Below are positions 7,125 through 8,099 of a DNA stretch of 32,224 nucleotides, one piece after another. Source of the DNA: a virus; UHGV virus genome UHGV-0122054; one strand, given 5' to 3'. The position numbers were made by a program, and so were the translations under genes. Positions within the stretch are counted from its first letter, which is position 1, and each line of letters opens with the position of its first letter. The notes under the pieces were generated by a model. That model was given only the letters and a program-made list of their open reading frames with translations, did no database searches and had not been told where the DNA came from.

Positions 7125-7139
7125 CACTTATTTTCCCTG

Positions 7140-7163
7140 GCTCGCTTTTGCGGGCTTTTTTTT
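7140..7163 (+). terminator. Intrinsic terminator after the tRNA cluster
   Basis: GCUCGC-UUUU-GCGGGC hairpin (one G.U) followed by 8 T. Confidence 0.65.
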
Positions 7164-7169
7164 AAATGT

Positions 7170-7383
7170 CTCACAATTCAGGCGGTTGACTGTTGTCTGG
7201 TTTGCGGGGAGTTTGTTAAAAGAAACTGGCATGGTGAATCCCCCTGTGCGGAGGGGCAATCAGCGAGTAGGTATATGGGATAATCGCGGATTCAGGTGCT
7301 GGTACTGAATTCACCGGGAGGCACCCGGCACCATGCAATGGCACATAGCGCCACTCTCCAGCCCCTCTCCGGAGGGGCTTTTC
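7170..7383 (+). ncRNA. Candidate small-RNA module A (non-coding, ends in intrinsic terminator)
   Basis: No credible ORF; hairpin CCCCT-gtgcgg-AGGGG (7240-7256); conserved CACCGGGAGGCACCCGGCACCATG (7312-7335); terminator GCCCCTC-TCCG-GAGGGGC plus TTTT (7361-7383). Homologous to module B. Confidence 0.3.
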
Positions 7384-7573
7384 TGTGCCGGATACATCAC
7401 AGTTTCTGGAACCTTAGGTACTACAGTATCAGTCAGGGTGCTATATTTTCAGATGTGATGAAAGCCTGTCAGCAGGCAGGGCGTATCGGAAATGACCCAG
7501 TAGAGAAAACGTTGACTCAGATACCGGTGCTGAGTTACCGGGAAACCGGCATCACATGACCGCTATCCTTCCA

Positions 7574-7601
7574 GGCCCATCCGCTCCGGTGGGCCTTTTT
7601 A
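7574..7601 (+). terminator. Intrinsic terminator closing an intervening non-coding unit
   Basis: GGCCCA..TGGGCC stem with inner CCG/CGG pairs, followed by TTTTT. Confidence 0.5.
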
Positions 7602-7637
7602 CTGCAGAAAACAGGTTCCCCGTTAAATGCTATGTTG

Positions 7638-7870
7638 CTCACAATTCAGTAAGTTGACAGTTGCCTGTCAGACTGGGCATTTGTTAAAAAAATTTCGCAT
7701 GGTGAATCCCCCTGAGCGGAGGGGCGACTGGTGACGGTATAATCTCTGATTATCAAAACGAGAATGACGCGGGTTTAGTGGCACCGGGCTGAACTCACCG
7801 GGAGGCACCCGGCACCATGTGCATGATGATACAGATACGCGGCTTTAGCCCCTCTCCGGAGGGGCTTTCT
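7638..7870 (+). ncRNA. Candidate small-RNA module B (paralogue of module A)
   Basis: Shares five ordered blocks with module A, including identical CTCACAATTCAG and the 24-mer at 7796-7819; perfect TATAAT at 7738-7743; terminator GCCCCTC-TCCG-GAGGGGC plus TTTCTT (7848-7870). Confidence 0.3.
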
Positions 7871-8099
7871 TATGGACAAAAAAAGCCCGCGCTGGGAGAC
7901 GCGGGCGGCAAGGAATAAACAATAAAACGTGAAGTAATATTTCAGCTGGCGAATAATACCCCATAGTAATCACTCTGCGCAACTGCGCGGTCTTTTTCGA
8001 ATTGCGGGCTGTAGTCTCCCTTCTGCCATTGTCCTGTAACTTCCGGACTTCAGCCTGCTCCTTATCTGACTCACAACATTATCCCGCCCGGGAGGATTC

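Follow-up and report, generated by a model that had tools for sequence, protein, structure and literature searches.

The Hfq-bound RNAs of Escherichia coli O157 Sakai were mapped by Tree et al. in 2014 (PMC4104026), and in eight lambdoid prophages the moron slot 3' of pR' was found to contain convergent pairs of small RNAs (sRNAs), for example EcOnc27 (sense) and AsxR (antisense) 3' of stx2B (PMC4104026); a later review terms such pairs dyads. STnc100-type RNAs count among the Hfq-bound sRNAs of prophages that border Shiga-toxin genes and reshape host regulation in enterohaemorrhagic (EHEC) and enteropathogenic (EPEC) E. coli, and single-nucleotide polymorphisms in the stx2-linked EcOnc27 rank among the top machine-learning predictors of haemolytic uraemic syndrome (PMC12711010). 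Here we analysed the virus genome UHGV-0122054 (32,224 nucleotides, hereafter the window), in which the segment between a tRNA cluster and a nanS-p-type esterase gene very probably constitutes a tandem array of three separately terminated, Hfq-associated, trans-acting STnc100-family sRNA genes, closed by a convergent EcOnc08-type sRNA. The family (RF02076), the dyad architecture of the moron slot and the exact sequence of the first unit (EcOnc05) are already published; the three-unit array, its sub-threshold middle member and the mosaic, terminator-bounded cassettes appear to be a modest addition.

Several relatives of these units have been detected as RNAs. In Sakai, EcOnc05 (Sp4, plus) shows an Hfq peak in cross-linking and analysis of cDNA (CRAC) and a Northern band of ~222 nt (PMC4104026 Table S2), and EcOnc27 (Sp5, plus) is Hfq-bound with bands of ~235/247 nt, the 247-nt species being destabilised without hfq (PMC4104026). 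Bands of ~187 nt and ~177 nt were reported for EcOnc13 (Sp3, plus) and EcOnc06 (Sp17, minus in chromosome coordinates), respectively (PMC4104026). In EDL933, transcription was observed for all 11 STnc100 copies, and one of them, 191 nt long, was detected on Northern blots (PMC5331693). PasD1 and PasD2 of EPEC E2348/69 (Pearl Mizrahi 2021), which are 172-173 nt long and Northern-detected, have a mapped 5' end at GCAUGG and carry their chimeras from the ligation and sequencing of interacting RNAs (RIL-seq) in the last ~50 nt (PMC8550237); Hfq-dependent stability is reported for the Pas sRNAs as a set (PMC8550237). A common ancestor of PasD and STnc100 RNAs has been proposed in a preprint by Zhu, Shabalina and Storz (2026), in which the Pas copies are distal, not tandem. 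Statements below on expression, Hfq binding and RNA sizes come from these publications, which dealt with identical or homologous sequences; our own analysis provides the family membership and structure of the units, their synteny, the array architecture and the mosaicism.

The units in the window share with STnc100, EcOnc05, EcOnc27, EcOnc06 and EcOnc13 the covariance-model family, an enclosing helix (P1) around three hairpins (P2-P4), an intrinsic terminator and the slot between Q/pR' and the lysis genes. The gene order (Q, methylase, tRNAs, array, SASA esterase, holin, lysozyme) places them in the lambdoid late region from Q to the lysis genes, as for STnc100. By comparison, Sakai and EDL933 carry one STnc100 unit per slot, the closest two copies in EDL933 being 27.8 kb apart, whereas three units lie head to tail in the window; no description of such tandem arrays was found in the published literature searched. 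The components of the array are as follows.

7170-7384, plus strand: unit 1, an sRNA gene of the STnc100 family and the counterpart of Sakai Sp4 EcOnc05; leader 7170-7228; P1 7229-7236 with 7329-7336; P2 7241-7245 with 7252-7256; variable centre 7257-7287; P3 7288-7295 with 7305-7312; P4 7314-7318 with 7324-7328; tail, variable, 7337-7359; terminator 7360-7379, followed by a U-run.
7439-7601, plus strand: unit 2, the middle, diverged STnc100-like copy; extended -10-like TGcTATATT 7439-7447; P1 7453-7460 with 7550-7557; P2-like 7465-7470 with 7475-7480; P3-like 7514-7519 with 7530-7535; P4-like 7538-7541 with 7546-7549; tail 7558-7572; terminator 7573-7596 plus U-run.
7638-7871, plus strand: unit 3, an sRNA gene of the STnc100 family whose leader and scaffold are of EcOnc27 type; leader 7638-7696; P1 7697-7704 with 7813-7820; tail 7821-7846; terminator 7847-7866 plus U-run.
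7361-7847: 487-bp block present in the window and not in Sakai Sp4, between two identical 20-nt terminators (pairwise alignment).

Units 1 and 3 are matched by RF02076 far above its gathering threshold of 47 bits. In the whole-window Rfam scan, both matches span the full model (1-206), with 136.3 bits over 7200-7390 for unit 1 (E 3.6e-30) and 165.4 bits over 7668-7877 for unit 3 (E 1.2e-37), E-values that rule out chance. The covariance model built in this analysis gives 173 bits for unit 1 (7229-7384) and 147 bits for unit 3, and the minimum-free-energy (MFE) folds of both units contain P1-P4 and the terminator, that is, the enclosing helix, three hairpins and terminator that characterise STnc100. 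A preliminary description of this DNA, made from the sequence without database searches, had read the segment as prophage small-RNA genes in the stx (moron) slot, a general reading that is correct, the family and locus type being already published. It delimited two homologous modules with five ordered blocks, all of which are present: CTCACAATTCAG at 7170-7181 and 7638-7649, TTGAC(T/A)GTTG at 7186-7195 and 7654-7663, a CCCCT/AGGGG hairpin at 7241-7256 and 7709-7724, the identical 24-mer CACCGGGAGGCACCCGGCACCATG at 7312-7335 and 7796-7819, and the identical 20-nt terminator AGCCCCTCTCCGGAGGGGCT at 7360-7379 and 7847-7866. The repeat finder likewise paired 7170-7257 with 7638-7725 as direct repeats of 88 nt (80% identity), and returned a 31-nt repeat of 97% identity that contains the 24-mer as well as the terminator family. 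The proposed module limits, 7170-7383 and 7638-7870, agree with the Northern sizes of the homologues EcOnc05 and EcOnc27, each module is closed by its own intrinsic terminator in the terminator scan, and the suspected CATGGTG...CACCATG helix belongs to the Rfam STnc100 consensus structure and to the MFE folds of both modules. The existing Rfam entry with its experimental homologues, the kinship of the middle copy and the convergent minus-strand RNA had been overlooked.

Unit 1 can be assigned to a known RNA. Pairwise alignment reveals that the window equals Sakai Sp4 from the tRNA through 7360, save for one inserted or deleted base in the T-run that follows the tRNA terminator, and that near-identity returns at 7847 and extends up to the start of the esterase gene; the 487 bp between the terminators are thus exactly what Sp4 lacks. 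The reverse complement of the EcOnc05 Northern probe matches the plus strand exactly at 7258-7292 and nowhere else in the window. Because of this identity to Sp4 and the exact probe match, unit 1 is, by its sequence, EcOnc05. Published STnc_100 primers for quantitative PCR on vesicles of Shiga toxin-producing E. coli also match unit 1 exactly, at 7230-7249 and 7303-7322. The RefSeq pipeline PGAP places a pseudo 'hypothetical protein' over unit 1 (7216-7344, minus strand; L001 9120-9245 and L128 4517-4642 in our RefSeq loci) and annotates no non-coding RNA in the array; the pseudo-ORF (open reading frame) is probably a spurious call over an sRNA gene.

Unit 3 resembles EcOnc27/sRNA103, which lies 3' of stx2B in Sp5, in leader and scaffold, and the segment 7625-8110 is collinear with the stx2B-to-nanS-p spacer of Sp5 and of phage Stx2_95. 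In the Rfam search of the Sakai Sp5 locus (L003), STnc100 scores 207.7 bits at 4423-4628, followed directly by AsxR at 4630-4682 on the minus strand. Unlike the leader and scaffold, the central insert and pre-terminator tail of unit 3 differ from those of EcOnc27 (classes C2/S2, defined below, versus C5/S5). The EcOnc27 probe, which targets the tail, has no match in the window at up to 3 mismatches, and the tail of unit 3 is therefore of another class. A 46-aa ORF antisense to unit 3 (7668-7808, minus strand) gave a sub-threshold Pfam match of YmjE type (PF23692; E 0.052, 14 bits versus a cut-off of 27).

Between the two modules, the preliminary description had noticed a third terminator-closed unit, and this is borne out by the terminator at 7573-7596. 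Unit 2 reaches 30.1 bits (E 1.7e-4) for 7429-7602 on the full STnc100 model in a permissive 1-kb search; PasD2, accepted as a relative, reaches 41.4 bits on RF02076. Its 8-bp P1 pairs AUGUGAUG with CAUCACAU, a G-C to A-U exchange relative to the family GGUG/CACC. A second allele (L045) occurs in other prophages and in E. albertii, and the two alleles share 98.9% identity over an 89-nt core and 95% over the promoter-like stretch, versus 61% in the 5' flank; the P2 hairpin is kept between them through a compensatory C-G to U-A change. Unit 2 is found, unannotated, in 673 of 5426 complete E. coli genomes. We consider it best labelled STnc100-like; that it is a third copy of the family is probable on these comparisons, though not established.

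The family structure was assessed on units gathered from IMG/VR with a 14-base pattern, which yielded 49 distinct cores, 44 of which were aligned. With the Rfam-type structure, 93.8% of the cells pair, as compared with 42-51% for slid controls. Ten pairs change on both sides in this alignment, a number reached in none of 500 shuffles. The covariation falls in P3, where 6 of 7 pairs covary, and likewise supports the terminator. Two other pairings were considered and set aside: an alternative 5'-strand pairing from RNAalifold on the 44 units was not adopted, in view of the 93.8% of cells that pair in the Rfam-type structure, a value above those of the slid controls, and a helix between AAUUCAG in the leader and the 3' strand of P3, considered by eye in units 1 and 3, was rejected because the motif is constant though P3 differs.

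Variation among the units is concentrated in two segments, the insert at the centre and the tail that links P1 to the terminator, which fall into 11 centre and 11 tail classes in 17 combinations. Units with centre C1, for example, carry S1, S6, S8 or S9 as their tail, and S1 in turn accompanies the centres C1, C2 and C8; these mixed combinations indicate recombination within the conserved block. In the window, unit 1 is C1/S1/T1 (centre, tail and terminator classes, respectively), unit 2 is C3/S3/T2 and unit 3 is C2/S2/T1. P1, P2 and P4 (7229-7257, 7312-7336 and the unit 3 equivalents) are almost invariant over the 44 units, whereas centre and tail are hypervariable, and this invariant core suggests a sequence-specific partner.

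PasD1 and PasD2 share the scaffold start (GCAUGGUGAAUCC...) with the window units, lie directly 5' of a sialate esterase gene and are Hfq-associated. They differ in a TTGACT-17-TATTAA promoter, the lack of a leader, another centre, another tail (seed UGUGAG) and another terminator; with S1/T1, S3/T2 and S2/T1 in units 1, 2 and 3, respectively, none of the window units carries the PasD seed and terminator (S4/T3). The tail may be the target-recognition segment, since the predicted PasD seed and the chimeras lie in the last ~50 nt and the EcOnc27 Hfq peak, with its coordinate offset checked on AsxR, spans P4 through the terminator. Adjacent paralogous sRNA genes with their own terminators, and with some parts shared and others different, are also known as OmrA/OmrB and PrrF1/PrrF2; these are, however, core-genome pairs with no sequence relationship to the present units, whose family varies from 1 to 5 copies between prophages, as recombinant mosaics.

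Arrays of 2 to 5 units were found in other prophages and in E. albertii. The covariance-model search of the collected loci revealed the same three-unit array in six loci. A diverged three-unit array, consisting of another first unit, the second middle-unit allele and a C1/S1 unit, is present in three IMG/VR loci and in E. albertii. Elsewhere, three units were found in L033, at least two in L032 and five in L124. In L124, an IMG/VR prophage, the five units occupy 5013-7931 between the tRNAs and nanS-p, and 4 of the 5, directly upstream of the latter, stand in tight tandem at a spacing of 260-270 nt with different centres and tails. Of 5426 complete E. coli genomes, 353 contain at least 80% of 7100-8120, as does only 1 of 50,697 phage records. 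The exact locus is carried, for instance, by E. coli ATCC 11775, S88, ML35 and VR50. Many non-EHEC strains carry three different family members at one site, where standard RefSeq annotation leaves the array unannotated or marks a pseudo-ORF.

The same covariance model gave weak second-site matches of 37-43 bits at L060 3218-3385(-), L029 6878-7045(+), L011 12614-12790(+), L013 12243-12419(+) and L131 1463-1620(+), at a distance of several kb or more wherever the locus also includes the main unit; none lies within the window, and they may represent a further distant paralogue. An 888-bp contig of Xanthomonas pisi (L140) contains an STnc100 unit of 171 nt and 141.0 bits, the same model score as the Sakai Sp5 copy, most likely as assembly contamination rather than true presence outside Enterobacteriaceae.

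The upstream regions of the family are of two types, a PasD type with TTGAYT-17-TATTAA and a leader type with TTAAAT, CTCACAATTCAG, TTGAC and TTTGTTAAAA, and units 1 and 3 of the window are of the leader type. The EcOnc13 probe maps inside the leader, and leader-type RNAs measure 222-247 nt; RNAs assigned to the PasD type measure 172-177 nt, a range measured for PasD and deduced for EcOnc06 from probe and size. From the probe position and these two size classes, the leader-type units would start just upstream of CTCACAATTCAG, near 7165-7175 and 7630-7643. Extended -10-like motifs and the published RNA sizes together suggest candidate promoters for the array, and the extended -10 motif of unit 2, a good match, is suitably placed for a putative transcription start at P1.

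These features suggest how the array may work. To the conserved scaffold of each RNA, the enclosing helix P1 around hairpins P2-P4, are added two exchangeable segments, a centre and a single-stranded tail 5' of the terminator, and, by analogy with PasD, tail and terminator would form the Hfq-binding, target-pairing end. Three units with three different tails would then address three different target sets and would not be redundant. In the lysogen, each unit, unit 2 included, would be transcribed from its own weak A/T-rich extended -10-like promoter; after induction, Q-modified polymerase would read through the array, which lies in the moron slot, with Q, pR' and the tRNAs on its upstream side and nanS-p and the lysis genes on its downstream side. 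The array, with its evidence of cassette-like tail reassortment, provides a compact system for examining the role of the scaffold and the diversification of target specificity, though no new kind of element.

The array would be closed by an RNA of the opposite strand, with the following features.

7878-8070, minus strand: convergent sRNA, homologue of EcOnc08/21/42 (terminator and promoter scan, Sp4 alignment).
7906-7885, minus strand: terminator stem of this RNA; U-run 7884-7878.
7975-7996, plus strand: conserved hairpin plus T-run 5' of nanS-p, within the minus-strand RNA (terminator scan).

EcOnc08/21/42 RNAs are encoded in Sakai Sp4 and Sp15, and for EcOnc08/21 (Sp4, minus) a Northern band of ~271 nt was reported (PMC4104026). 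The window aligns base for base with Sp4 over 7878-8099 with few substitutions, and homology to the Sp4 locus opposite nanS-p (alignment columns 808-1083) together with an intrinsic terminator identifies the minus-strand RNA as EcOnc08/21/42-like. The EcOnc08/21/42 probe corresponds to the plus strand, with 30 of 35 positions identical at 7953-7987, and since the Sakai probe equals the plus strand, the EcOnc08-type RNA is on the minus strand; a search for the EcOnc08 probe at up to 3 mismatches returned no window match, the homology having 5 mismatches in 35. Over the terminator and the 3' 50 nt, the RNA has almost the same sequence as E2348C_1409.E2348C_1408.IGR, a candidate from EPEC RIL-seq, from which it differs in CUUGCC instead of the seed CUUGCG. 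It matches no Rfam family at threshold in 7100-8120. Its 5' end would be at about 8070 from the sole sigma-70-like minus-strand promoter (8106-8078), which overlaps the nanS-p start codon, or at about 8150 by the 271-nt Northern size; with either end, the predicted RNA is antisense to the nanS-p 5' untranslated region. AgvB, AsxR and EcOnc03 occupy the same moron slot as convergent partners of STnc100-type RNAs, and the minus-strand RNA of the window takes the equivalent position; unlike it, they are 51-60 nt long with a conserved 42-nt 3' part, whereas the window partner is of the EcOnc08/21/42 type with another sequence and terminator. With this partner, the window has the full sRNA dyad that has been published for lambdoid moron slots. 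The 7975-7996 hairpin is nearly invariant among the window, Sp5 and Stx2_95, with one substitution beside the stem.

Three other explanations of the segment were weighed. One holds that it acts in cis as a terminator stack, in which four plus-strand terminators (7139, 7360, 7573 and 7847) and a convergent minus-strand one insulate nanS-p and the lysis genes from tRNA and moron read-through in the lysogen; only Q-modified polymerase would pass, and the RNAs would be by-products. The region 6700-8400 does contain 10 terminator-like sites as compared with 1.8 +/- 1.3 in shuffled sequences, the slot lies between Q/pR' and the lysis cassette, and the terminator is the most widely shared element of the family, with T1 in 30 of the 44 distinct units. 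This explanation, however, does not account for the conserved 150-nt scaffold upstream of each terminator, for the P3 covariation and the 98.9% conserved core of unit 2, or for the Hfq binding and abundance of homologous RNAs. As a full account we regard it as unlikely, while insulation is compatible with the sRNA role as an additional function, the two not being mutually exclusive. Far less probable is a suggestion of the preliminary description, namely an anti-sRNA sponge of the AgvB/AsxR class whose CA-rich 5' motif CUCACAAUUCAG sequesters GcvB. Almost every unit with a leader conserves the motif at its 5' end, the motif is probably part of the transcript in view of the leader-directed EcOnc13 probe and the Northern sizes of 222-247 nt, and AgvB-type RNAs do occupy the same slots. 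Nevertheless, RF02702 and RF02703 have no match at E<=10 on either strand of 7100-8120, while the positive control, Sp5 4630-4682 on the minus strand, scores 88.1 bits for AsxR and 40.9 bits for AgvB. Duplex energies of the leaders with GcvB, the sole target tested, are no better than those of shuffled sequences (RNAduplex, z -0.18 and -1.26), as compared with z -3.35 for the AgvB consensus, and the known anti-sRNAs measure 51-60 nt and are encoded on the opposite strand.

The least probable alternative, which we find scarcely credible, is that the segment is decayed stx-flanking DNA, the outcome that the preliminary description had named as its refutation, or encodes small proteins (ORFs 7296-7559 and 7333-7458, plus strand, and 7216-7344, minus strand). 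It could draw on the PGAP pseudo-CDS over unit 1, on ribosome footprints on some EDL933 STnc100 copies with coverage values up to 3.2 (PMC5331693), and on the weak, sub-threshold YmjE-like Pfam match (E 0.052) of ORF 7668-7808 on the minus strand. Against coding, none of the seven small ORFs has a match at any Pfam or NCBIfam threshold, consistent with the earlier view that the region holds no credible ORF. The plus-strand ORFs cross intrinsic terminators and would therefore be without a stop codon on the terminated RNA, and conservation tracks RNA helices, not codons. Decay is contradicted by the conservation pattern, the locus being identical in 353 complete genomes and the family under selection.

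Several observations count against an array of three STnc100-family sRNA genes. The sigma-70 scan found no plus-strand promoter, and the 5' end of unit 1 is ambiguous, being placed at 7165-7175 by Northern sizes, at 7200 by the Rfam model and at 7229 by equivalence to the PasD 5' end. The basis for expression is homologues from Sakai, EPEC and EDL933, none from a strain with the three-unit array. No direct target is established for any STnc100-type RNA; overexpression of EcOnc27/sRNA103 was reported to have only indirect effects on fimZ and espA. P1, P2 and P4, and with them the enclosing helix, barely vary among the 44 units and lie beyond the reach of covariation, and the fold z-scores of the three units are modest (-1.8 to -1.95). 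For unit 2, the score falls under the RF02076 threshold of 47, outside formal membership, and the MFE fold is unlike the family architecture.

With regard to the array as sRNA genes, we tentatively put forward a joint proposal, possible but somewhat short of an even prospect: unit 2 would represent an undescribed expressed subfamily, scaffold and terminators would serve as recombination joints, and the invariant core would dock a partner. If true, the unit 2 subfamily would be present in about 12% of complete E. coli, including the type strain ATCC 11775 and the extraintestinal pathogenic strain S88, and also in E. albertii, and would escape current Rfam and PGAP annotation; the recombination joints would let prophages build cassette arrays of 1-5 units with different target-recognition tails.

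The flanks of the array are formed by the following features.

6875-7124, plus strand: phage tRNA cluster (ileZ-type CAT, argN TCG, argO TCT), from ARAGORN and Rfam tRNA matches.
7139-7164, plus strand: intrinsic terminator after tRNA-Arg (terminator scan).
8100-9956, plus strand: nanS-p-type SASA carbohydrate esterase gene (618 aa), then holin and lysozyme (ORF list, RefSeq annotation of near-identical loci).

The tRNA trio 5' of the array is the one that precedes stx2AB in Sakai Sp5 and Stx2_95. The array slot, from the tRNAs to nanS-p, is that of stx2AB in Stx2 phages, and the prophage here is without stx. A perfect 13-nt inverted repeat (GCGGGCTTTTTTT / AAAAAAAGCCCGC) at 7150-7162 and 7878-7890 flanks the whole sRNA array; since both arms are terminator ends, it may reflect convergence instead of a recombination signal. 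At the 3' end of nanS-p, GATAGAAAGTCTGGTGCTGGAGATAAATGCA (9911-9941, plus strand) equals the PasA RIL-seq target site listed for the EPEC gene E2348C_1246; a PasA gene 3' of nanS-p was not found, the PasA probe having no match at up to 3 mismatches. Directly 3' of the Q gene (about 4377-5198), two strong plus-strand intrinsic terminators lie at 5284-5299 and 5612-5629, the former at the tR' position, from which the StxS sRNA arises in Stx phages. In the prophage early region, the plus strand carries the sok antitoxin RNA of a hok/sok-type module at 2551-2726 (RF01794, 120 bits).

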